Part shown: one piece after another, positions 22,615 to 53,143 of the stretch
Layout: each line of letters begins with the position of its first letter
Numbering within the stretch: position 1 is the stretch's first letter
Virus record (IMG/VR): IMGVR_UViG_3300028585_000514
Source of the DNA: a virus
Lineage: Duplodnaviria > Heunggongvirae > Uroviricota > Caudoviricetes
DNA length: 64,000 nucleotides
Direction: 5' to 3' (one strand)
Notes under the pieces: generated by a model
Database searches by the model: none
Told to the model about the DNA's origin: nothing
What the model saw: the letters and a program-made list of their open reading frames with translations, nothing else
Position numbers and translations under genes: made by a program

Positions 22615-23274
22615 ATGGGTTCATTCTACGATTCATTCATTTACAAGGCGTATTCCAAAGCTCTCTACCACATCACTCATATCAACTGGAACTGGATTGA
22701 TAAGAAGATAAACGGTAGCTACTACAATCTTACTGAAGCTGACCACAACGATATTCGTGCGGCATTAGCTAAGAATTACTTCATCATCGGTACTCGACGC
22801 AATAACTTCATGTCGACATACCTAATCATGCTTGCCCATTTCGTCAAAACCGGAAAGAAGTGTCATTACTCACACGTCCTTCTAAACCTTGAAGAAGATG
22901 ATCCTGCAACTGACGAGCATTATCAACTTTACGAATCCACTTCAAAAGGTGTTGGCATTGGTACTTTCAAAGAAGTATTTGATGTCGATTCTGTTGTCCT
23001 CCTACGTCCTAAGAATATCTCGATTGAAGAATGGCACTATGTTGTCGAGCAAGTAAAGAAAGACATTGGCAAGCCATACGATGATTTCTTCAAGATTAAC
23101 GATGATACTCACCTCTCGTGCGTTGAGTTGATCCGAAATGGTCTAAAAAAGATTCCGGATTACGATAAGAAGTTTGCAAACTTTGAGGCAGAGATTGCAA
23201 AGGCAGGCAACTTAACTCCAGAAATGTATTACACTTCCAAGGACTTCGAAATCGTTTACGAAATTCGTCGTTAA
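22615..23274 (+). CDS. Permuted papain-like amidase (YiiX/YebB-like NlpC/P60)
   Basis: HYSHV before YES, GKPYD.FF, LSCVELI (His before Cys); late box at 22571-22578. Confidence 0.75.
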   Translation: MGSFYDSFIYKAYSKALYHITHINWNWIDKKINGSYYNLTEADHNDIRAALAKNYFIIGTRRNNFMSTYLIMLAHFVKTGKKCHYSHVLLNLEEDDPATDEHYQLYESTSKGVGIGTFKEVFDVDSVVLLRPKNISIEEWHYVVEQVKKDIGKPYDDFFKINDDTHLSCVELIRNGLKKIPDYDKKFANFEAEIAKAGNLTPEMYYTSKDFEIVYEIRR

Positions 23275-23390
23275 CACTTCAGCAACACCTCAGAAAAGCG
23301 AACCTATAATGGTTCGCTTTTTTCGTATGGAAACACACTTTATGTGCTTCCCAATTTATAATTCACTCCGTCGTCAACCAGGAAAATAAT

Positions 23391-24065
23391 ATGACTTACA
23401 TTGTAGGACTGACCGGTGGTATCGGTTGTGGTAAAAGCACCATTGAAAAAATGTTTCTCGCTCAGGGCAACGTAGCGATCATCGACACCGATGTCATTGC
23501 ACACGAGCTCCAGCAACCAGGAAAGGCAGGTTTTGTATTCATCAAGCAGGCGTTTGGCGACGCCGTTGTCAACTTCGATGGCACGCTGAACCGTGACTAT
23601 CTGCGCAATCTGGTCTTCAACGACAAAGAACAGAAAGCTAAGCTGGAGTCGATCATGACTCCTCTGATCTACCATGTCGTGCTCGACGAGATTGCTAAGG
23701 TAAACCAAGAATCCGTCCTTAATAAAATCAAGGCGAAGCTCTCCGGTGATACTGGCTACGAAGTCAAGTACATCATCCTGACCGTTCCTCTCCTGCTCGA
23801 GAGCAAGGTGTTCAGCAAGTTGGTCGATCGCATTCTGGTCGTCGACTGCCCAGAAGATGTGCAAGTTGCTCGTGTGATGAAGCGCAGTGGCTTGTCGAAG
23901 AAGATGGCAGAGAAGATTCTGCAGGCTCAGTGCCCCCGCATCTTCCGCATCATGAAGTCGGATGATGTCTTGCACAATTACGACTGTGATCCTTCCGATA
24001 ACGAAGAAGCCGTGAAAGCACTACATCAACGCTATCTTGATCTCGCAATTCAAGGTACGAAGTAA
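23391..24065 (+). CDS. coaE: Dephospho-CoA kinase
   Basis: VGLTGGIGCGKS, IDTD.IAH, LNRDYLR.LVF, VPLLLE, DRILVVD. Confidence 0.95.
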   Translation: MTYIVGLTGGIGCGKSTIEKMFLAQGNVAIIDTDVIAHELQQPGKAGFVFIKQAFGDAVVNFDGTLNRDYLRNLVFNDKEQKAKLESIMTPLIYHVVLDEIAKVNQESVLNKIKAKLSGDTGYEVKYIILTVPLLLESKVFSKLVDRILVVDCPEDVQVARVMKRSGLSKKMAEKILQAQCPRIFRIMKSDDVLHNYDCDPSDNEEAVKALHQRYLDLAIQGTK

Positions 24066-24114
24066 TTTCCGCTGAGTATAATTCAACTTCCACATTCCAA
24101 CAAGGATAATATAA

Positions 24115-24756
24115 ATGTTCGACAAGCTCAAGAGCATGGTCTGGACTTCGGATGAACCGGCTCAAACGCCGGCCGCCACTCCGGCTCCAGCACCACAACC
24201 GGCACAAGCTACTCCGATGAACCAAAACTTCCAGTTCGCAACGGAAGTCGCTGCACCGGTTGATCCGGTTCTGGATGTCGATGGCATCCGCACTGCAATC
24301 GTCAGCGTCATCGAAACCCAGCCTGGCTTCGCCGACTTCATGAAATTCGCTGCCGCATCGGCCGCTCTCGAAAAGGTGATCCCGATCGAAGGCACTCGTA
24401 TGCAAGCAGCACAGGCTACCTCCGGCCTGACCCGTGATCAACTGCTGGCTTCGGTGAATACCTTCACCGGTGTGCTGGAAGGTGAAGCACAGAACTTCCA
24501 GACCTCGTACGTCGCCGCTGCTGAACAGAACATTCAGCTGGTGAATAACGAAGTCGGTACGATCGATGGTGAAATCCAGGCGCTGACCGCGAAGCTGGCT
24601 GAACTGTCGACTCGCCGCCAAGAACTGGTTGCCGATGGAATGACCAAATCCTCGGAACTGGCCAAAGCCAAGATCGACTTCGACTCGATCATGAAATCGA
24701 TCACTGCACGTTACACCGACGCAGCGAACAAAATCCAACAATTCCTGACTGCTTAA
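24115..24756 (+). CDS. Hypothetical coiled-coil protein, first gene of the envelope cluster
   Basis: Pro/Ala linker and helical C-terminus; AAGGA RBS. Confidence 0.85.
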   Translation: MFDKLKSMVWTSDEPAQTPAATPAPAPQPAQATPMNQNFQFATEVAAPVDPVLDVDGIRTAIVSVIETQPGFADFMKFAAASAALEKVIPIEGTRMQAAQATSGLTRDQLLASVNTFTGVLEGEAQNFQTSYVAAAEQNIQLVNNEVGTIDGEIQALTAKLAELSTRRQELVADGMTKSSELAKAKIDFDSIMKSITARYTDAANKIQQFLTA

Positions 24757-24760
24757 AATC

Positions 24761-25762
24761 ATGACCACCACGAACAAGAAATCCTTCTGGGACTCCAAAG
24801 AAGGCACGACCGGTATGGTCGTCGGCCTTGGCATCTTCGGTGCCATCGGCTACGGCGCCTACAAGATCATGCCGTACGTTGCCAACCTGCTCGAGAACAC
24901 GTTCTACGCGATCCTGTTCGGCACCCTGTCCGTGGCACTGTTCTACGCAGTGGTCATCGACAACACCCTTCGCAGCCGTGGCTGGTTGGTGTACAAGATG
25001 CTGATGCGCGCACTGACCTACTCGATCATCAAATTCGATCCAGTCGGCGTGCTTCGCGAACTGCAAAAGAAAGCCAAGCAACGCATCGAAGACATCGCCA
25101 ACAACCGTAACGCAGTTAACGGCCAGGTCAAGCAAATCACCGCCACGGTAAATGCGCTGATGAACGACGAACGTTCGCTGATCAGCAAGTGCGAAGCACT
25201 GCGTAAGCAGAATGCTGACCCGATGGAAATCCAGTCGGCACTTTCGAAACTCGGCAAGGTCCGTGCATCGAAAGAACGCATGAACAAGACCCAAGCTCAA
25301 GTTCAAGGCTTCTACGACCAGCTGAACAAGGCTTACAAGGCGCTCGTGATCATCGACGGCGACATCGACTTCGAGATCAACATCCAGGAACGTGAGTACA
25401 AAGCTGTCTCCGCTGCCCATGCTGCCTGGAAGAATGTCCGTGCCGCACTGAAAGGTACCGACGAAATCGATTCGCTCCGCAATGACACCCTGGCCTGGAT
25501 GGCTGAAGACTACGGCAACAAGCTTGGCGCCATCGAATCCTGGATGGACGACTCGAAGAAGTTCATCGATGATGTCGACCTGCAGCAACTGATGTACGCT
25601 GAAGACGGCTTGAAAGTCCTCGAAGGTCTCAACAGCGTCGACCTGAACGTGGTACAATCGAAGACTGCTGCACCGGCTCTGTCGCAAAGCACCCCTAATG
25701 TCCTGTATCCGAATGTGAACGTCGGTGCAAAGACTGTTGAATATTCCGTTCGCAACAAGTAA
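24761..25762 (+). CDS. Membrane-anchored coiled-coil protein, PspA/IM30-like (tentative)
   Basis: Two N-terminal TM segments, DP..VL motif, about 200-aa heptad region. Confidence 0.6.
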   Translation: MTTTNKKSFWDSKEGTTGMVVGLGIFGAIGYGAYKIMPYVANLLENTFYAILFGTLSVALFYAVVIDNTLRSRGWLVYKMLMRALTYSIIKFDPVGVLRELQKKAKQRIEDIANNRNAVNGQVKQITATVNALMNDERSLISKCEALRKQNADPMEIQSALSKLGKVRASKERMNKTQAQVQGFYDQLNKAYKALVIIDGDIDFEINIQEREYKAVSAAHAAWKNVRAALKGTDEIDSLRNDTLAWMAEDYGNKLGAIESWMDDSKKFIDDVDLQQLMYAEDGLKVLEGLNSVDLNVVQSKTAAPALSQSTPNVLYPNVNVGAKTVEYSVRNK

Positions 25763-25783
25763 AAAAGAAAGGCATCAAATAAT

Positions 25784-27550
25784 ATGGCTCTCACTCCTGG
25801 CTTCAAGAAGTTCATCGCCCTGATCGCTACCGTCGGTGTTGTTGGTGGTGGTATCTACGGATACAAAGCAGGCTACTTCGCTTCCAAGGCAACTGCCGAA
25901 TCGCAAGTCCTGGAAAAAATGGATGTCACCGCATCCGCTTCGTCCACCCCGATGCCTTCGTCGGTACTGAACATCGCTCCAGTGACCAGCGGCTTCAAAG
26001 CAAAGCTGCTGACCATCCCCTGGAATGCAACACTCGGTCTGCAATACGCTAACGGTGCACCGACCACTGCACCTGGCTCGATCATGGCAAAGCATGGCGT
26101 CAACTTGACGATCGAACGTCAAGACGACTACGCTCAAATGCTGACCGAGCAAGTCAAGTTCGCAAAAGCTGTCGCAAACGGCGAAGCGAACCCTTCCGAA
26201 GGTGCAGCATTCGTCATCATCATGGGTGACGGCTTCCCTGGCTATGTCGCTGGTGCTCAAGAAGCACTTGGCAAACTCGGTCAACAAATCCAGGTCGTCG
26301 GCTCCGTCGGCTACAGCCGCGGTGAAGACAAGTGCATGATGCCAGCCAACGTCAAGGCTGATGCACAAAAAGCACGTGGTACCCTGATCGGTGGTGTCAA
26401 GGCCGATGGTGACCTGAACATCTGTCTGAAGTGGGCAAGCGACAACGGCATCCCAGTGAACGTCGATGGCTCGACCTACGATCCAAAAGCGATCAACTTC
26501 GTTTACACTGACTCGTTCGTCAAGGCTGACGAGAACTACATCGCTGGCTACTGCGAAAATCGTCCAGTCGTCGACGGTGGCAAGAAGACCGGTGAAACTC
26601 GCAAGGTCTGCCAGAACGGCACCGCTACCTGGACTCCAGGTGACGTGAAGGTCGCTACCAAGAAAGGTGGTCTGGTCTCGATCGCTTCGACCAAAGAATA
26701 CATGTGGCAGATGCCGTCGATCATCATCGGCAACAAAGCATGGATGGAGAAAAATCCGCAGTACGTCGAGAACCTCCTGGCTGCAGCATTCGAAGGTGGT
26801 GAAGCAGTTCGTTCGAACGATGCTGCTCTGACCCAAGCTGCTGACATCGCTGCCAAGGTCTTCAACGAAGAAACCGGCGCTTACTGGAAGCGCTACTTCA
26901 AAGGTGTGGTCGAGCCTGACCTGCAAGGTCAAGACATCCACCTGGGTGGTTCGACTACCAATGGTCTGGGTGACAATGCCTTCCTCTTCGGTCTGAACGG
27001 CAATGACAACCTGTACAAGCGAGTCTACAACGTCTATGGCGGCACCGTTGCCAAGCTGTACCCAGATGTTCTGCCGAAGCTGCTGCCTTACGAAAATGTC
27101 GTGAACACTTCGTACATCCAGTCGCTGCTCGGTAAAGCTACGACCACTGCACAAGCTGTCAAGCCAGAATTCAGCTCGACCCAGCAAGTGACCGGTACCT
27201 TCGCCAAGAAATCGTACTCGATCGAGTTCAAGACCGGCAGCGCAGAGTTCAACTCGTCGGCAATCGCTACCTTGAACGACCTGCTCGACCAAGTCTCGAT
27301 CAGCGGTCTGACGATCCAGGTCAATGGCCACACCGATAACACCGGCAACAGCGAGATCAATCAAGCCCTGTCGAAGAAGCGTGCCGATGCTGTCAAGACC
27401 TGGCTGATGAACAATGCTTCGAGCACCTTCCCAGCCGAACGTATCCGTACCCGTGGTTATGGTGACAGCCAGCCAGTCGCTGACAATGGCTCCGAGTCCG
27501 GCAAAGCTCAGAACCGCCGCGTCGAAATCGTCCTGCTGAACACGAACTAA
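25784..27550 (+). CDS. Substrate-binding protein (NitT/TauT-like) fused to a C-terminal OmpA peptidoglycan-binding domain
   Basis: N-terminal TM; PBP2-like body; F.TGSA, GHTDNTG....N..LS..RA..V, GYG...PVADN...G...NRRVE. Confidence 0.9.
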   Translation: MALTPGFKKFIALIATVGVVGGGIYGYKAGYFASKATAESQVLEKMDVTASASSTPMPSSVLNIAPVTSGFKAKLLTIPWNATLGLQYANGAPTTAPGSIMAKHGVNLTIERQDDYAQMLTEQVKFAKAVANGEANPSEGAAFVIIMGDGFPGYVAGAQEALGKLGQQIQVVGSVGYSRGEDKCMMPANVKADAQKARGTLIGGVKADGDLNICLKWASDNGIPVNVDGSTYDPKAINFVYTDSFVKADENYIAGYCENRPVVDGGKKTGETRKVCQNGTATWTPGDVKVATKKGGLVSIASTKEYMWQMPSIIIGNKAWMEKNPQYVENLLAAAFEGGEAVRSNDAALTQAADIAAKVFNEETGAYWKRYFKGVVEPDLQGQDIHLGGSTTNGLGDNAFLFGLNGNDNLYKRVYNVYGGTVAKLYPDVLPKLLPYENVVNTSYIQSLLGKATTTAQAVKPEFSSTQQVTGTFAKKSYSIEFKTGSAEFNSSAIATLNDLLDQVSISGLTIQVNGHTDNTGNSEINQALSKKRADAVKTWLMNNASSTFPAERIRTRGYGDSQPVADNGSESGKAQNRRVEIVLLNTN

Positions 27551-27567
27551 TTCAGCAACACCTCTAG

Positions 27568-27596
27568 AAAAGGAGACTTCGGTCTCCTTTTCTTTT
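27568..27596 (+). terminator. Intrinsic terminator inside the envelope cluster
   Basis: AAAAGGAGAC-TTCG-GTCTCCTTTT followed by a U-tract. Confidence 0.85.
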
Positions 27597-27617
27597 CACA
27601 AAAATAATAGTGAAATC

Positions 27618-28391
27618 ATGAACTTCAAAAAACTCGTAGCACCATTCTCTGGCGGCTCCATCGCCCTTCTCGCAGGAATCCAGTTTGCTTTCCTGATGCT
27701 GATGTGGATCATCGCTCCAAACAGCCTGTTCCCATCGCCAGTCGAAGTTCTCCAGTCATGGAATAAACTCGCAACCGAACATGGTCTACTAGTCGAACTC
27801 GGCCGTAGCTCATGGACCATCCTTCAAGCCCTGTTCTACAGCTCGATCATCGGTGCCACCATCGCCTATCTTGCTGCACTGAATATCATCAAGCCAATGG
27901 CTAAAGGCCTTGCTGGTCTCCGCTTCCTCGGCTTTGCTGGTATCACGTTCATGTTCACTATGTGGACCGACGATGGTGCCTCGCTCAAGGTCTGGTTGTT
28001 GACCTTTGGTATGTTGGTGTTCCAAGTCACGAACATGCTTGCGGTCACGAATAGCGTCACGCAAGCTGAAGTTGACTATGCCAAGACTCTGCGACTGTCT
28101 CCGTTCCGTACGGTGTACGAACTCCTGATCCGTGGCAAGTCGCATGACTTCCTCGACATCCTGCGCCAGAACATGGCAATCGGTTGGGTGATGCTCTCGA
28201 TGGTGGAAGGTCTTGTTCGTTCGGAAGGTGGCATTGGCTCCCTGCTCCTGACGCAAAGCAAGTACCTGAACTTGTCGTCGATCGCTGCAATCCAGATCAC
28301 GATCTTGCTGTATGGCATCGTTCAAGATTATGTCATGGCGATGATCCGTCAACTTGCTTGCCCATACCTGAAATACACCAACGTGAAGTGA
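27618..28391 (+). CDS. ABC transporter permease (NitT/TauT-like)
   Basis: Six hydrophobic segments; FPSP.EV; EAA-like AKTLRLS; E......GGIG.LL. Confidence 0.9.
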   Translation: MNFKKLVAPFSGGSIALLAGIQFAFLMLMWIIAPNSLFPSPVEVLQSWNKLATEHGLLVELGRSSWTILQALFYSSIIGATIAYLAALNIIKPMAKGLAGLRFLGFAGITFMFTMWTDDGASLKVWLLTFGMLVFQVTNMLAVTNSVTQAEVDYAKTLRLSPFRTVYELLIRGKSHDFLDILRQNMAIGWVMLSMVEGLVRSEGGIGSLLLTQSKYLNLSSIAAIQITILLYGIVQDYVMAMIRQLACPYLKYTNVK

Positions 28392-29209
28392 TGAACATGA
28401 ACCGCTCTTACACCCGCAACGATCGCCTCTTGACTGTTGAAAACCTGAATCTGGATTTCAACGGCAACAAGATTCTCCGCAACGTCAATGTCAAGGTCGA
28501 CGACATCGTTCGTCCTGGCATGAATCAAGGTCAGGTCATCTCCCTCCTGGGGCCGTCAGGGATCGGCAAAACCCAGCTGTTCAAATGCTTATCTGGCCTG
28601 ATGCGTCCTACCTCTGGTGGCGTCCTGGTCGGCAAGGAACGTAAGCTGGTCGAGGCTGGCGAAGTTGGTTTCGTGTTCCAGAACTATCCGTTGCTGCAGC
28701 ACAAGACTGTGATGGAAAACCTGATGCTGGCTGCCAACAACGCTGGCAAGAAGAAGGAAGAAGTGACCGACCTTCTTGCTCAGTTCGGTCTTGCTGACAA
28801 GGCGGACATGTACCCGGCACAGTTGTCTGGTGGTCAACGCCAGCGCATCTCGATCATGCAGCAAATTCTGTGCAGCGAACATTTCTTGCTGATGGATGAA
28901 CCATTCTCTGGCCTGGACGTCCTGTCGAAGAAGCGCATGATGGACCTGATTCTGAAGATTTCGACCCTTCATGAACATAACACGATCATCTTGACCACCC
29001 ACGACATCGAGGCAGCAGTTTCGATTTCCGACACGATTTGGATGCTTGGCTTCGAGAAGAAGGACAACGCATACCTTCAAGGTGCTACTATCGTTCGTGA
29101 AGTCGACTTGATCGAGCGTGGGCTTGCCTGGAATCCAAACGTCGAAAAACACCCTAACTTCCGTCCAACGGTGGAAGAACTTTATAAATCGTTCCATACG
29201 ATTTATTGA
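28391..29209 (+). CDS. ABC transporter ATP-binding protein (NitT/TauT-like)
   Basis: Walker A GPSGIGKT, Q-loop VFQ, LSGGQRQR, LLMDEPFSGLD, THD. Confidence 0.95.
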   Translation: MNMNRSYTRNDRLLTVENLNLDFNGNKILRNVNVKVDDIVRPGMNQGQVISLLGPSGIGKTQLFKCLSGLMRPTSGGVLVGKERKLVEAGEVGFVFQNYPLLQHKTVMENLMLAANNAGKKKEEVTDLLAQFGLADKADMYPAQLSGGQRQRISIMQQILCSEHFLLMDEPFSGLDVLSKKRMMDLILKISTLHEHNTIILTTHDIEAAVSISDTIWMLGFEKKDNAYLQGATIVREVDLIERGLAWNPNVEKHPNFRPTVEELYKSFHTIY

Positions 29210-29288
29210 GAAAAATACATGTTACCCTAGGAAATCCCTAGGGTATAATGCAAACTCCTTCCACACCTAATCTAATATAGGGAATATC

Positions 29289-29591
29289 ATGGCTCTGACC
29301 AATGGTGCAAAGAAATTTCTGGGACTGGTCGCGACTGTCGTCGTAATCGGTGGTGGTATCTACGGCTACAAGGAATACAAAGCCAAGAACCCAACGCCAG
29401 TGACCGAAGAGGTCGTGCAACAAGCACCGACTGAAATCCCACAGCCGATCAACTCGCCGATGGCACAAGCTGAACGCGTCGAAGACATCGTCGAACCGAC
29501 CGAACACGAAGAACCAGCGCCGGCACCGACCAACAACGCGTCGAACAACCGCGGCCTGGCAAACGTGCTGAACGCTGCCAAGAACAAGTAA
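29289..29591 (+). CDS. Small membrane-anchored protein sharing the N-terminal anchor of the SBP-OmpA protein
   Basis: MALTNGAKKFLGLVATVVVIGGGIYGYK versus MALTPGFKKFIALIATVGVVGGGIYGYK. Confidence 0.85.
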   Translation: MALTNGAKKFLGLVATVVVIGGGIYGYKEYKAKNPTPVTEEVVQQAPTEIPQPINSPMAQAERVEDIVEPTEHEEPAPAPTNNASNNRGLANVLNAAKNK

Positions 29592-29616
29592 TTTCACCTG
29601 CTACCAAGAGAACAAC

Positions 29617-30522
29617 ATGAAGAACTTCATCCGCGCCGCCGCATTCGCTACCGCTGCCATCATTTTCGCCAACGCTCATGCAGCGCCGATCGGCATCGCT
29701 TCCGGTGCTCCGACTGGCACGAACCATCCGATGGGCGAAGACATCGCCAAGACCTGCTCGACCAAGCAGTCGCCGATCACCAACGTCCAGACCGAAGGCT
29801 TCCTGGACAACGTGTTCAAGATTTACAGCGACAAGAACGTGCAGTATGGCATGGTCACCGTCGACGCCCTGGCCTACCAGCAAGGTATCGACCCGAAGAT
29901 GATGGATCGCATCGTGATGGTGTTCCCGTTCTTCTCGGCAGATATGCACCTGGTGGTGCGTGAAGATTCGCCATACCAGACCCTGACCCAGCTGCAAGGC
30001 AAACGCGTCGTCGAAGGCCCGGAAGGCAGCGGTACCTGGGTTTCGGCACAGGTGATCAAGCAAATCACTGGCATGAACTGGCAGCCGATGATCGCTTCGC
30101 AGAAAGCCGGCCTTGACGCAGTGCTGTCCGGCAAAGCCGATGCTGAATGGATCGTCGCCGGCTACCCAGTCGACATGCTCTCGAAGCTGCCGAAAGGTGT
30201 CCGTCTGATCAGTGTCGCTCACCCGAAGCTGGACTCGTTCAACTTCTACACCAAGACGATGATCTCGTCCGGTTCGTATCCGTTCCAGAAGAAGTCGGTC
30301 TCGACCTATAAAGTCGACTCGGTCCTGGCAACGTACGCTTACAAGAACCAGTACCAGAAAGAAATCGGCGACCTGGTGTCGTGCATCACTCACAACCTCG
30401 GCGACCTGCAGCGCAATGGCCATCCAAAGTGGAAGGACGTCGATCCACTGGACATCGAACGTATCAAGTGGCAAGCTCACCCTGCCGCAGTGAGCGCCAT
30501 CAAGCGTGAGATGAAGCGTTGA
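29617..30522 (+). CDS. TAXI-family TRAP solute receptor
   Basis: Signal peptide; IASGAPTGT, TEG..DN, L.GKRV..GP.GSGT. Confidence 0.85.
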   Translation: MKNFIRAAAFATAAIIFANAHAAPIGIASGAPTGTNHPMGEDIAKTCSTKQSPITNVQTEGFLDNVFKIYSDKNVQYGMVTVDALAYQQGIDPKMMDRIVMVFPFFSADMHLVVREDSPYQTLTQLQGKRVVEGPEGSGTWVSAQVIKQITGMNWQPMIASQKAGLDAVLSGKADAEWIVAGYPVDMLSKLPKGVRLISVAHPKLDSFNFYTKTMISSGSYPFQKKSVSTYKVDSVLATYAYKNQYQKEIGDLVSCITHNLGDLQRNGHPKWKDVDPLDIERIKWQAHPAAVSAIKREMKR

Positions 30523-30734
30523 TCCAAAAACCAGGCCGCCAACCAACCCGGTCCGAACAGTTACTTCTTCAAGACTTGGTCAAGCGTCACAGTCAACATG
30601 CCGACGATAACGCCGCGACAGTAATTGTTCACCACATCACTGAAGACACACCCAAAGGTCTTCAGCTCGAAGTCGAGTGGCGAATCTACAACTTCCGTAT
30701 GACTCGCCTCCGCTTCGAACGAATCTTCCTGTAA
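30519..30734 (+). CDS. Hypothetical protein
   Basis: 71-aa ORF overlapping the upstream stop. Confidence 0.6.
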   Translation: MIQKPGRQPTRSEQLLLQDLVKRHSQHADDNAATVIVHHITEDTPKGLQLEVEWRIYNFRMTRLRFERIFL

Positions 30735-30793
30735 TTCCTCCAAACGATCCCTGACAACCTCAGGGATCGTTTCTCTTTTGTCCCATAGATATT

Positions 30794-31057
30794 ATGACCG
30801 AGCAAATTGCCCGCGCCCTGGCGGCGCGTATTCGTGCCCTAGACTGGGCCTACCAATACACTGACGACTACACTGTTTACTGTCAGGAGAAAAGAAAGAT
30901 TGAAGCGATGCGTAAAGAACTGATGCAGCTTCCGGTCGAATTGACCAAAGAAATATTGTCGGAGCTGGTTGCCAAAGATGGCGAATACGCAGCCCCGATC
31001 AGTTTTATGGAATTGATTGTCGTCAAGCAGATGATGGCCAACTCGACGACTGACTAA
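30794..31057 (+). CDS. Hypothetical protein
   Basis: 87-aa ORF (DW.Y.Y.DD motif). Confidence 0.75.
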   Translation: MTEQIARALAARIRALDWAYQYTDDYTVYCQEKRKIEAMRKELMQLPVELTKEILSELVAKDGEYAAPISFMELIVVKQMMANSTTD

Positions 31058-32161
31058 TTACTTTTGGCCTTCTTCAAACTTGATCCATGCGCGCCACATA
31101 CCAGAGGCGACATTGGCATCAGCCAATAGGTCCATGTAGCTATCGTACCTGACCTCATCAATATCCGTATTATACAAGTAAGTCATCTTTGCAACCATAT
31201 CGTTAGTATCCGTAGGCGAAGCATGCAAGTACGGAGGAACAAACGTGATTTCATTTGATGTGATGACCGGCGAACCAGCAGCAATCGCATCCGCCGCAAC
31301 GATATTGTAAGTTTCAGTGAAGCTTACTTGCAAGGTCATATCCATGTCCTTCAGCAATTCGGTAAACGTTTCATGCGGCATCCAAGGATGTTCAATCAAC
31401 GTGTGCTTGTTCTGGCTACCGAATAGCTTACGGATGTTCTTGATAACTGGATCACCTTTACCTTCAACACGATTTCCATTGATGTGGAAATGCAATTCTT
31501 TACCAACGCTGTCAGCAAAACGCATAGCAGCGACGGCTTGAATCAATTGATTCTTGAGTGGACGAATAGCACCAAAGCATCCGATATGAAGGATTGGGCC
31601 AGTTGTTTTGCGTAGACGGTTGGTTGGAATAAATCCAAGCTTCTTAAGCATTTTCTGGTATGCAGACGTTTTTGCTGGTGCTGGGACTTTATATAGCGGA
31701 TAGAAGTTCGGCAGGAACACAACCTTCTGACGATATAGATGCTTGATGTCGTCGCAAATGCCACGGCTGTTTGCTGCCACATAAACATTCTTGTAGTTGT
31801 AGTATTTTGGAATCCAGTCAAACGCCATGCCTTCGCCAGCAATGAATGGCACTTCGCTATGTAGGCGAACAAGCCACTCAACCTTAGGATGTAGGCGAGT
31901 TAGGACTTCAAACTTTTCCGGAACAACCCATAGGGCTTCGATGATGACGTGAGTTGGCTTGTATGCTGAAACTTCACGGTCGATGCAATTATTGTCTTGA
32001 ACACCGACCACTTTACAATCGACGCCATCTTTGGTAAGCATGTCGACAACGAAGTTGACAGAGTTTAGTAGGCCGGATGATTTGCCGCCTGTTGAATAGG
32101 CTTCACCAGTTTCTAGTGGCGTATCGCGGTTCTTGCAGAGGAATAGGATTCTGGTTTTCAT
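31058..32161 (-). CDS. Glycosyltransferase (GT-B, GT4-like)
   Basis: CFGAIRPLKN, SFTETYNIVAADA..AGSPVI; late box at 32192-32199 (-). Confidence 0.8.
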   Translation of the reverse strand: MKTRILFLCKNRDTPLETGEAYSTGGKSSGLLNSVNFVVDMLTKDGVDCKVVGVQDNNCIDREVSAYKPTHVIIEALWVVPEKFEVLTRLHPKVEWLVRLHSEVPFIAGEGMAFDWIPKYYNYKNVYVAANSRGICDDIKHLYRQKVVFLPNFYPLYKVPAPAKTSAYQKMLKKLGFIPTNRLRKTTGPILHIGCFGAIRPLKNQLIQAVAAMRFADSVGKELHFHINGNRVEGKGDPVIKNIRKLFGSQNKHTLIEHPWMPHETFTELLKDMDMTLQVSFTETYNIVAADAIAAGSPVITSNEITFVPPYLHASPTDTNDMVAKMTYLYNTDIDEVRYDSYMDLLADANVASGMWRAWIKFEEGQK

Positions 32162-32191
32162 ATGGAGGATTGGAAGGAAGGTTAACATGGC

Positions 32192-43159: not shown

Positions 43160-43236
43160 GGCGAGTTAGCTCAGTTGGTTAGAGCAGGAAACTTCAAATC
43201 TCTTGGTCACCGGTTCGAGTCCGGTACTCGCCACCA
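43160..43236 (+). tRNA. tRNA with a TCA anticodon (opal suppressor-like, not Sec)
   Basis: Perfect acceptor, D and T arms; loop CTTCAAA; weak anticodon stem; short variable loop. Confidence 0.75.
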
Positions 43237-44440: not shown

Positions 44441-44518
44441 GCGGTATTAGCATATGGCAATGCATGAGCCTACCTCAAATTGGCTGACTTCAGGTTCGAT
44501 TCCTGATGACCGCTCCGA
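44441..44518 (+). pseudogene. Degenerate tRNA-like element with a Gly-like acceptor
   Basis: GCGGT/ACCGC ends, GCAT/ATGC D stem, TCAGG-TTCGATT-CCTGA; irregular anticodon arm. Confidence 0.45.
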
Positions 44519-52783: not shown

Positions 52784-53143
52784 TCATACGGCTAAAGCCG
52801 CAACCACATTATTGGTGTTGTAGAACCTGGAAGATTGTTTCGCACGGAACTTATTCATCCACTGTTGTTCTTTTTTCTTCAACTCATTTTCGTCTTCGAC
52901 GTATTCTAAAATAACCCTTTTGAATTGAGTGATTCCATAATATTCGAATACTTTCTTAAAACGCTTTCCAGAACCACGATAGTCATCATGAATAATGCCT
53001 TTGTGACTTCCGACATAAAACATATCTTCTGGGATACACTTCCAAAGATAGATGAAGCCAGAGTACTTTTCAGGTTTTGGTTGGTGAAGGGTTTCGAAGT
53101 TTTCAAGGAGAGGATTTTGATGGGTATGAATGATGCGTTGCAT
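52784..53143 (-). CDS. GIY-YIG (Seg-like) nuclease domain, short
   Basis: GFIY...FYVGSH...Y.GSG...F.R.ILE...E; CATAAATA box at 53168-53175 (-). Confidence 0.75.
   Translation of the reverse strand: MQRIIHTHQNPLLENFETLHQPKPEKYSGFIYLWKCIPEDMFYVGSHKGIIHDDYRGSGKRFKKVFEYYGITQFKRVILEYVEDENELKKKEQQWMNKFRAKQSSRFYNTNNVVAALAV

Follow-up and report, generated by a model that had tools for sequence, protein, structure and literature searches.

A cassette of seven genes was analysed in a 64,000-nt stretch of viral DNA (hereafter the window). The window corresponds to the minus strand of the 184,871-bp viral record IMGVR_UViG_3300028585_000514 between positions 53051 and 117050; the cassette occupies 86.5-92.9 kb of the full record. 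A first-pass annotation, made from the sequence letters, had described these genes as a co-oriented, phage-borne envelope system. All seven open reading frames (ORFs) were found intact on the plus strand at the coordinates given in Table 1, and domain and structure searches confirmed that the earlier gene calls were right. The products of the first three genes are designated A, B and C. They are followed by a permease and an ATPase of the ATP-binding cassette (ABC) type, by a small protein that resembles the membrane anchor of C, and by a binding protein of the TAXI family.

Table 1. Genes and RNA features of the cassette (window coordinates; TM, transmembrane; aa, amino acids)
Feature	Coordinates	Strand	Size or basis
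A, cytoplasmic partner	24115..24756	+	213 aa, no TM segment, no known family
B, two-TM protein with PspA/IM30-like domain (predicted)	24761..25762	+	333 aa
C, TM anchor + NMT1-class binding domain + OmpA domain	25784..27550	+	588 aa
Hairpin between C and permease, candidate partial terminator/attenuator	27566..27593	+	RNA fold
ABC importer permease (putative), multi-pass	27618..28391	+	257 aa
ABC ATPase	28391..29209	+	272 aa
Hairpin between ATPase and small gene	29218..29250	+	RNA fold
Small anchor-only protein	29289..29591	+	100 aa
TAXI-family periplasmic binding protein	29617..30522	+	TIGR02122
Strong intrinsic terminator, cluster end	30742..30772	+	consensus scan + RNA fold

The first-pass annotation had likened B to PspA. 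The AlphaFold2 (AF2) model of B consists of helices at residues 13-66 (the two TM helices), 69-89, 94-149, 154-230 and 240-291, with a predicted local distance difference test (pLDDT) value above 88 for residues 100-200, within the long hairpin formed by 94-149 and 154-230; an FDP motif lies at residues 92-94. The charge distribution suggests that both termini, and the PspA-like domain, are cytoplasmic (N-in/C-in). A Foldseek search of the PDB with this model ranked Vipp1 and PspA first (Vipp1 7o3w, E 1.6e-3), and PspA 4whe aligned with it over 119 columns with a template modelling score (TM-score) of 0.80 and a root-mean-square deviation of 2.2 Å. Against the AlphaFold DB, PspA clusters were also matched, below three uncharacterised clusters that aligned over nearly the full length. 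The model has an ESCRT-III-like fold, with the caveat that helical hairpins are common folds. At the profile level, hhalign comparison of the B family (86 sequences) with an alignment of 23 canonical PspA proteins drawn from bacterial genomes gave a probability of 92.6% (P 4.4e-7) over 136 columns, and a smaller B alignment (35 sequences) gave 83%; residues 92-235 of B matched 23-161 of PspA, with FDP superposed in register on the EDP of PspA. Controls, comprising one reversed and 30 block-shuffled PspA alignments, scored at most 31 as compared with 45-54 for the real alignments. A profile search of B against PDB sequences returned generic coiled coils only. The PspA-like character claimed earlier was thus recovered both as fold and as profile-level homology, despite the silent Pfam model discussed below, and B is best regarded as a putative remote homologue, a divergent and membrane-integral member of the PspA/ESCRT-III superfamily.

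PspA, Vipp1 and ESCRT-III constitute a universal machinery of membrane repair and remodelling. Canonical PspA, Vipp1 (IM30) and LiaH are soluble or peripheral proteins that depend on other membrane proteins (PspB/C, LiaI) for their recruitment. In its layout, B resembles them, with an amphipathic helix and a DP motif ahead of a long helical hairpin and further helices, but it differs in being integral to the membrane through its own two-TM hairpin. The B family comprised 1208 clusters at 50% identity (E <= 1e-3), and genomes that carry B also encode an ordinary PspA elsewhere. A canonical PspA gene of a Sphingobacteriales genome (G002:C2:2185611-2186249; PF04012, E 2.4e-32) may precede the A-B genes of locus L016 (range 2190222-2207061) by about 12 kb, if the two contigs are the same.

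Of the neighbours of B, protein A is the most constant, its gene lying directly upstream in nearly all cases: jackhmmer over the ORFs upstream of B identified homologues of A directly 5' of B in about 40 loci, and A is 37% identical to the protein next to B in Paraburkholderia (E 2e-29). In its AF2 model (pLDDT 84), an N-terminus that is disordered and rich in Pro and Ala precedes three short helices and a single long one of about 105 residues. The protein can be divided into an amphipathic motif at the N-terminus, which is short and conserved, a Pro/Ala-rich linker, a helical head of small size and a stalk helix. Foldseek against the PDB found nothing for A with E below 0.37, a profile search against PDB sequences returned generic coiled coils only, and an Atlas search recovered unnamed bacterial clusters only. 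We rejected a reading of A as a second paralogue of PspA, as hhalign aligned it with PspA over only 29 columns (49% probability) and with B over 23 columns (15%). The gene at 24115, which the first-pass annotation had put forward for comparison with PspA along with B, is therefore not PspA-like by either profile or fold. A is predicted to be a new helical cytoplasmic protein with no relative of known function.

Loci were collected by a B-alignment search of genomes and viral contigs, which yielded 43 bacterial and 14 viral loci (numbered with the prefix L). The order A-B-C (NMT1+OmpA)-permease-ATPase was found in Geobacter, Fibrobacteria, Saprospiraceae, Chitinophagales, Methylococcales, Gemmatimonadaceae, Chitinimonas and Xanthocytophaga, and likewise in viral contigs, the 462-kb uncultured phage LR756500 and Lak megaphages. 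Co-conservation of the cluster across many bacteria and phages, which the neighbourhood search was suggested to look for, was thus evident. Related phage contigs keep the seven-gene order at 47-78% protein identity amid typical jumbo-phage genes; bacterial copies lie amid housekeeping genes on chromosomes of up to 2.7 Mb, and the closest bacterial homologues of B were found in Burkholderiales, to which the host probably belongs. Reduced versions also occurred. B stands by itself in some Saprospiraceae, some Cytophagales have only A-B, and A-B with an anchored binding protein but without an ABC transporter was found in Paraburkholderia, in the Ralstonia jumbo phage RsoM2USA and in the viral contigs L054 and L058. 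Because A-B with an anchored receptor recurs without ABC genes, the transporter is seen as an optional add-on to an A-B core. The same loci lend indirect support to the earlier statement that the system is not a plain nutrient importer; the specific roles that the first-pass annotation proposed with it (stabilising the infected cell, delaying lysis, blocking superinfection) are purely conjectural.

The lone B of Saprospiraceae metagenome-assembled genomes (MAGs; L031, L034, L036, L037 and L043), found without A, C or ABC genes, always followed an ORF of 150-158 aa, the start of which resembles a low-molecular-weight phosphotyrosine phosphatase or an ArsC-type protein, as judged from the N-terminal sequence only. 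In Paraburkholderia eburnea (L003:1-9014), the triad of A, B and a binding protein with a LysM domain lies just 3' of a type VI secretion cluster (VipB, VgrG, TssF, TssG, SciN) and of a 166-aa OmpA-domain protein; this association may be coincidental, as it was not seen in the betaproteobacterial MAG L005.

The OmpA domain of C (PF00691, residues 482-578) scored 67.4 bits against a cut-off of 27.2 and was matched by Pfam, NCBIfam and the PDB, with PDB OmpA-like domains reaching E 3.5e-30. Residues D518 and R533, which we take to be the peptidoglycan-binding Asp and Arg of known Pal and OmpA structures, were invariant across 20 relatives in the family alignment. The middle region of C had no Pfam match of its own, and a phmmer search of residues 60-470 against the PDB found nothing; family and structure evidence was therefore needed for its assignment. 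The Atlas model of the exact protein matched NMT1 proteins and NMT1+OmpA fusions over residues 60-470 (TM-score 0.65-0.76), and PF09084 was matched by 11 of the 20 relatives, identifying an NMT1-class binding fold.

The ATPase matched PF00005 (ABC_tran) with 100 bits, with PhnT2, sulfate, SaoA, SsuB and TauB types as the top NCBIfam models, and its translation shows Walker A, Q-loop, signature, Walker B and H-loop. Its start is at 28391 and not at the upstream TTG at 28184; the ATG overlaps the TGA of the permease gene (ATGA), by which the two genes appear translationally coupled. The permease gave weak matches to SsuC/TauC/SaoP (E 2e-5 to 4e-3) and a match to phrog_6743 (3e-11). Hydrophobic segments are present, as is an EAA-like loop that lacks the usual Gly, and the gene is syntenic with those of C and the ATPase in many loci; this weak but consistent evidence points to a divergent member of the BPD_transp_1 / SsuC-TauC-SaoP group. 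Permease and ATPase are predicted to form a homodimer-type importer pair of the NitT/TauT class. No substrate could be transferred by homology, since all transporter scores were far below equivalog cut-offs.

The product of the last gene matched TIGR02122 (TAXI) with 101 bits against a cut-off of 84.35 and NMT1_3 with 3.7e-16, has its own signal peptide, and was matched by TAXI proteins in the PDB (E 1e-8 to 2e-7). Among the 43 bacterial and 14 viral loci, TAXI was seen in viral loci only. PF06808 (DctM) had no match at E <= 1 in the 185-kb record, which is incomplete; a host-encoded membrane partner of the tripartite ATP-independent periplasmic (TRAP) type is possible. Unlike TAXI-TRAP receptors, the TAXI protein thus stands in this record without a TRAP membrane partner.

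Residues 1-35 of C form a glycine-rich single-pass anchor (N-in) starting MALTPGFKKF. The small protein has this C-type glycine-rich TM anchor at its N-terminus, followed by an acidic/Pro-rich tail, and is in this sense an anchor-only paralogue; it is proposed as a putative membrane tether for the TAXI protein. In Paraburkholderia, Caballeronia and a betaproteobacterial MAG, the protein encoded after B begins with a segment that shares 58-66% identity with the anchor of C, but its remainder is unrelated to C, being of the SBP_bac_3+LysM type, and ABC genes are absent. Viral contigs L054 and L058 share this SBP_bac_3+LysM architecture. OmpA and LysM, two unrelated wall-binding domains, accordingly share the same place on the anchored proteins. 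The loci in which B is at least 33% identical to that of the window all have the same anchor type, whether the receptor is NMT1+OmpA or SBP_bac_3+LysM. Anchor score correlated with B identity (Spearman rho 0.39, p 0.016) and not with binding-domain similarity (rho 0.06), in a comparison of phylogenetically non-independent loci that is in essence one of two anchor lineages. Individual loci illustrate both directions: the binding domain of L056 is 66% identical to that of C, yet its anchor is of a different type and its B only 29% identical, while L003 has a binding domain unlike that of C, yet an anchor 60% and a B 46% identical.

The TAXI genes followed the same pattern of anchoring. An anchor-type small ORF precedes TAXI in L006, L053, L056, L057, L062 and RsoM2USA, and its anchor type was always that of the local C anchor; in L061, anchor, linker and TAXI are fused in one 356-aa ORF, and no anchor-type small ORF was found before TAXI in L063 and L064. 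By sequence comparison, then, the anchor appears to go with A-B and not with the binding domain, a relationship that is new here, and a single anchor type appears to carry three receptor classes, namely NMT1+OmpA, SBP_bac_3+LysM and TAXI (split or fused). Prediction of a complex between B 1-100 and C 1-60 from alignments scored 0.00, which gives no answer and speaks neither for nor against binding. Between B and the NMT1+OmpA protein, Xanthocytophaga flavus (L026:9131-10162) and a Sphingobacteriales MAG (L046:9129-10148) encode a protein of 339-343 aa with a similar N-terminal anchor and a weak match to Ppx/GppA (ASKHA fold); with it, the anchor would have a fourth type of cargo.

A terminator had been placed near 27568 by the first-pass annotation. 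A stable hairpin does lie between C and the permease (12-bp stem, UUCG loop, then CUUUUC; -18 kcal/mol, z -4.5, a stability reached by none of 200 shuffles), but it has a weak T-run, for which reason the consensus terminator scan did not list it. The hairpin between the ATPase and the small gene (-18.4 kcal/mol, z -5.8) has no U-tract on the plus strand and is listed by the scan as terminator-like on the minus strand. The terminator at the cluster end has a 13-bp stem and a U-rich tail (-20.1 kcal/mol, z -6.95). With these three stable hairpins the cluster looks composite, split into the blocks A-B-anchor, C-body/permease/ATPase and small/TAXI. The locus looks like an RsoM2USA-like arrangement into which a C-permease-ATPase block was inserted, which agrees with the position of the hairpins between blocks and with the affinities of the genes, B being nearest to Burkholderiales-type copies and C, permease, ATPase and TAXI to another viral lineage. 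A TATAAT at 29243-29248 overlaps the 3' side of the second hairpin, 41 nt 5' of the start codon of the small protein, and might serve the small/TAXI genes as a promoter of their own; the scan found no -35 partner for it. Sigma-70-like promoter sites were no commoner in the scan than in shuffles (4 versus 4.8), and for this reason no promoter claim is made. An ORF at 30519-30734 (TTG start, 71 aa) was not counted as a gene, having no relatives in related loci.

The phage origin of the cassette was borne out by its context. The large terminase subunit (TerL) of the record is 55% identical to that of RsoM2USA and 43% to that of Xanthomonas phage XacN1, the window carries 32 tRNA genes, its ORFs being mostly small, and close relatives of the cassette proteins were found on metagenomic contigs of 324-350 kb; for these reasons the cassette is considered phage-borne, and the record is probably a fragment of a jumbo phage of about 340 kb. 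Phage genes and tRNAs flank the cassette on either side. The genes had been called strongly codon-biased, which overstates a moderate difference: GC content is 0.53 in the cluster versus about 0.47 in the flanks, and GC content at third codon positions (GC3) is 0.61-0.77 in the cassette versus 0.46-0.66 in other genes of the window. A megablast search of the cluster against 50,697 phage records gave zero matches. DNA identical to the cluster was present in leaf-litter metagenomes, and four leaf-litter metatranscriptome runs held fragments 100% identical to all seven genes, a hint of expression in leaf litter that is only weak because DNA carry-over is possible. The RNA contigs had no coverage at the flanks (23300-24091 and 30692-31200) and in some internal bins; being contig data, these gaps indicate neither absence of transcription nor operon limits.

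Directly 5' of the cassette (22615-24065) lie genes for a homologue of Peptidase_C92 (YaeF/YiiX-type amidase, E 7.6e-5) and for a dephospho-CoA kinase, CoaE (E 4.9e-49); both also precede the cassette in contig L006, and the wider neighbourhood is therefore regarded as conserved. On the 3' side of the cassette terminator, an 87-aa ORF (30794-31057) with no family match has a counterpart in the same place in L006/L007 (32% identity, E 1e-12), and a GT4-family glycosyltransferase lies on the minus strand (31058-32188; Glycos_transf_1 and 'GT4-conflict' matches, E 1e-5). The 32-tRNA set includes two tRNAs with UCA anticodons (43160-43236 and 44441-44516), labelled SeC by ARAGORN.

Taken together, these data suggest that the locus is probably a jumbo phage's version of an envelope cassette that is widespread in bacteria and huge phages, kept for the upkeep of the host envelope, a function that we infer from its genes. 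Its core, on sequence and structural model, is the A-B pair, with B predicted to lie in the inner membrane and to present its PspA/ESCRT-III-like domain on the cytoplasmic face. A would bind B, and the anchors of C and of the small protein could dock on the glycine-rich TM hairpin of B, so that A, B and the receptors would form one complex reaching from the cytoplasm through the inner membrane to the cell wall. The ABC importer would receive a small solute from C and possibly also from the TAXI protein, and B may polymerise on the inner leaflet, protecting or reshaping the inner membrane. Expression of the cassette by the phage would then keep the host envelope and the proton-motive force intact through a very long infection cycle. 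A further-reaching version, which we put forward only tentatively and consider possible rather than likely, is that an A-B 'docking platform', and not the transporter, is the real unit: a membrane-integral ESCRT-III/PspA-like polymer with a glycine-rich TM hairpin, recruiting interchangeable periplasmic receptors via the shared single-pass anchor, would act as a modular trans-envelope device that couples a periplasmic ligand or the wall state to remodelling of the membrane from its cytoplasmic side, and by which jumbo phages would manage the host envelope during very long infections.

Several observations weigh against an envelope-upkeep cassette built on B. The Pfam model PF04012 did not match B at E <= 0.1, nor did a six-frame search of the record with it yield anything at E <= 10, and it was matched by only one of 35 relatives of B (E 2e-5); PF03357 (Snf7) likewise matched neither B nor any part of the record. 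The case for PspA homology of B is built on comparing profiles with profiles and folds with folds, an approach prone to error for a coiled-coil protein. The permease reached 21.1 bits (E 2.8e-4) with PF00528 (BPD_transp_1), below the cut-off of 26.4, and a ligand can be assigned to neither C nor the TAXI protein from sequence. The co-variation of anchor and B comes from essentially two lineages, so that shared ancestry could explain it. The record is classed as 'provirus' in IMG/VR with a CheckV completeness of about 53%, and the metatranscriptome contigs could come from contaminating DNA.

That the cassette is a plain auxiliary nutrient importer appears unlikely. The phage would then increase the uptake of a limiting solute (sulfonate, nitrate, phosphonate, thiamine-precursor or compatible-solute class) by an ABC importer served by either of two binding proteins, and A and B would be no more than scaffolds or unrelated neighbours. 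A full importer set of binding protein, permease and ATPase with all catalytic motifs is indeed present, the NMT1, Phosphonate-bd and OpuAC binding-domain classes are classic import receptors, metabolic genes are frequent in huge phages and CoaE adjoins the cassette here. Yet simple uptake needs no tethering of a receptor to membrane and peptidoglycan, the synteny of A and B with C extends over several phyla, and in Paraburkholderia, RsoM2USA, L054 and L058 A and B are kept together with an anchored receptor where the ABC genes are missing. These ABC-less variants with SBP_bac_3+LysM or TAXI receptors would suit a signalling device, in which the tethered domains would respond to a ligand in the periplasm or to peptidoglycan state by switching the polymerisation of B, with the ABC ATPase as energiser or regulator in place of an importer. 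The interchange of OmpA and LysM and of three binding-protein classes on one anchor, and a TAXI protein without TRAP membrane partner in the 185-kb record, would fit as well. We give signalling no better chance than plain import, as the NMT1+OmpA protein is almost always followed by permease and ATPase, as expected of a working importer, the cassette has no linked output domain or regulator, and transmission of ligand binding through a single TM helix is unsupported.

A role in conflict, by which the cassette would serve superinfection exclusion, control of lysis timing, or an envelope sensor for defence or anti-defence, is improbable. It is suggested by analogy with Zorya, in which a single-pass protein anchored to the wall is paired with a membrane protein that has a long coiled coil in the cytoplasm, and the cassette is phage-borne and patchily distributed. 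PADLOC matched ZorB models to C, but only at residues 505-585, i.e. within the OmpA domain, and its other matches were generic ones to the ABC fold; identity as a defence system was rejected on this basis. Bacterial copies, moreover, sit in housekeeping surroundings on the chromosome. Least probable of all, and in our view barely credible, is that the cassette is passenger DNA, a recently captured host operon or mis-assigned host DNA without a role in infection. The higher GC content of the cluster compared with its flanks, the IMG/VR classification and incompleteness of the record, and nearest bacterial B homologues in the likely host order could be read in this way. Against it stand the intact reading frames, the phage genes and tRNAs on either side, the conserved seven-gene order among jumbo-phage genes in related contigs, and the versions of the cassette in RsoM2USA, Lak phages and LR756500. 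Maintenance of the host envelope by an A-B-based cassette is thus the reading that we retain.

The targeting and regulation of PspA-type proteins beyond the classical Psp and Lia systems are little understood, and the cassette is informative in this respect: it fixes a PspA-like protein in the membrane and links it genetically to wall-tied receptors and, in many cases, to an ABC importer. With some 1200 clusters at 50% identity, the B family spans many bacterial phyla and giant phages including Lak megaphages. If the proposed coupling is true, it would possibly be a new route by which periplasmic information reaches an ESCRT-III-like polymer, and the answer could explain why giant phages repeatedly retain host-envelope genes. 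The question can be tested at the bench because the cultured phage RsoM2USA carries a minimal A-B-anchor-TAXI version.

Among transport systems, the ATPase and permease of the cassette resemble those of NitT/TauT importers (SsuABC, TauABC, NrtABCD, SaoABC), their nearest models being SsuB/TauB/SaoA and SsuC/TauC/SaoP; unlike in these importers, the binding protein C is TM-anchored and wall-tethered. Compared with MotAB and Zorya stators, B has two TM helices instead of the four of MotA and ZorA, and the anchor of C contains no Asp or Glu, i.e. it lacks the acidic residue of the MotB/ZorB type.

Operons combining PspA or a TM-anchored 'divergent Snf7' protein with an ATPase of the ABC type, with a permease and with a PBPB+OmpA protein have been described previously, for example around OGG56892.1 of Candidatus Handelsmanbacteria (Ravi et al., 2024, mSystems, PMC11237479), and were read as OmpA holding the wall while the binding domain supplies the linked ABC transporter. 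The present cassette has the same components, that is, unknown protein(s), a PspA-like protein, a protein with signal/TM segment, binding domain and OmpA, a permease and an ABC ATPase, and its first five genes are arranged as the supplement of that study lists them for OGG56892.1. The published example has a further TM+Snf7 protein and a tandem of inactive and classical AAA+ ATPases, neither of which adjoins the cassette here: the record search gave no match for PF03357, its PF00004 matches lie at 3.9, 27.9 and 47 kb, at least 38 kb from the cluster, and no AAA+ neighbour was found in the related loci L006 and L008. Conversely, in the cassette the PspA-like protein itself bears the two-TM hairpin, and the anchor-only protein and TAXI are extra. 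A survey of huge phages reported 189 pspA genes in 184 genomes, 15 of them beside a complete ABC system and ten beside a 'two-TM transporter substrate-binding protein', and proposed mitigation of membrane stress (Yuan and Chen, bioRxiv 10.64898/2026.10.24.761521); it remains at survey level and makes no mention of A, of OmpA/LysM tethering, of the shared anchor or of the TAXI pair.

The closest cultured counterpart is found in RsoM2USA (MG752970), which encodes, in the same order as here, A (ORF55, 24% identical), B (ORF54, 45%), the anchor-only small protein (ORF53) and TAXI (ORF52, 40%). ORF54 was annotated as PspA by BLAST and as an 'integral component of membrane' in a phage with a latent period of 270 min (PMC8504454); all four genes are 'hypothetical' in GenBank. 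As C, permease and ATPase are missing, RsoM2USA represents a minimal, transporter-less variant. The novelty implied by the first-pass annotation does not extend to the type of operon, already present in PMC11237479 and bioRxiv 10.64898/2026.10.24.761521, and the locus is a variant of a known, experimentally untouched cassette that adds detail and no new category; the details of the anchor are additional to those studies. What the locus contributes is an anchor-centred modularity, an anchored TAXI protein in split and fused form, and the recognition of a cultured phage with a minimal version of the cassette.

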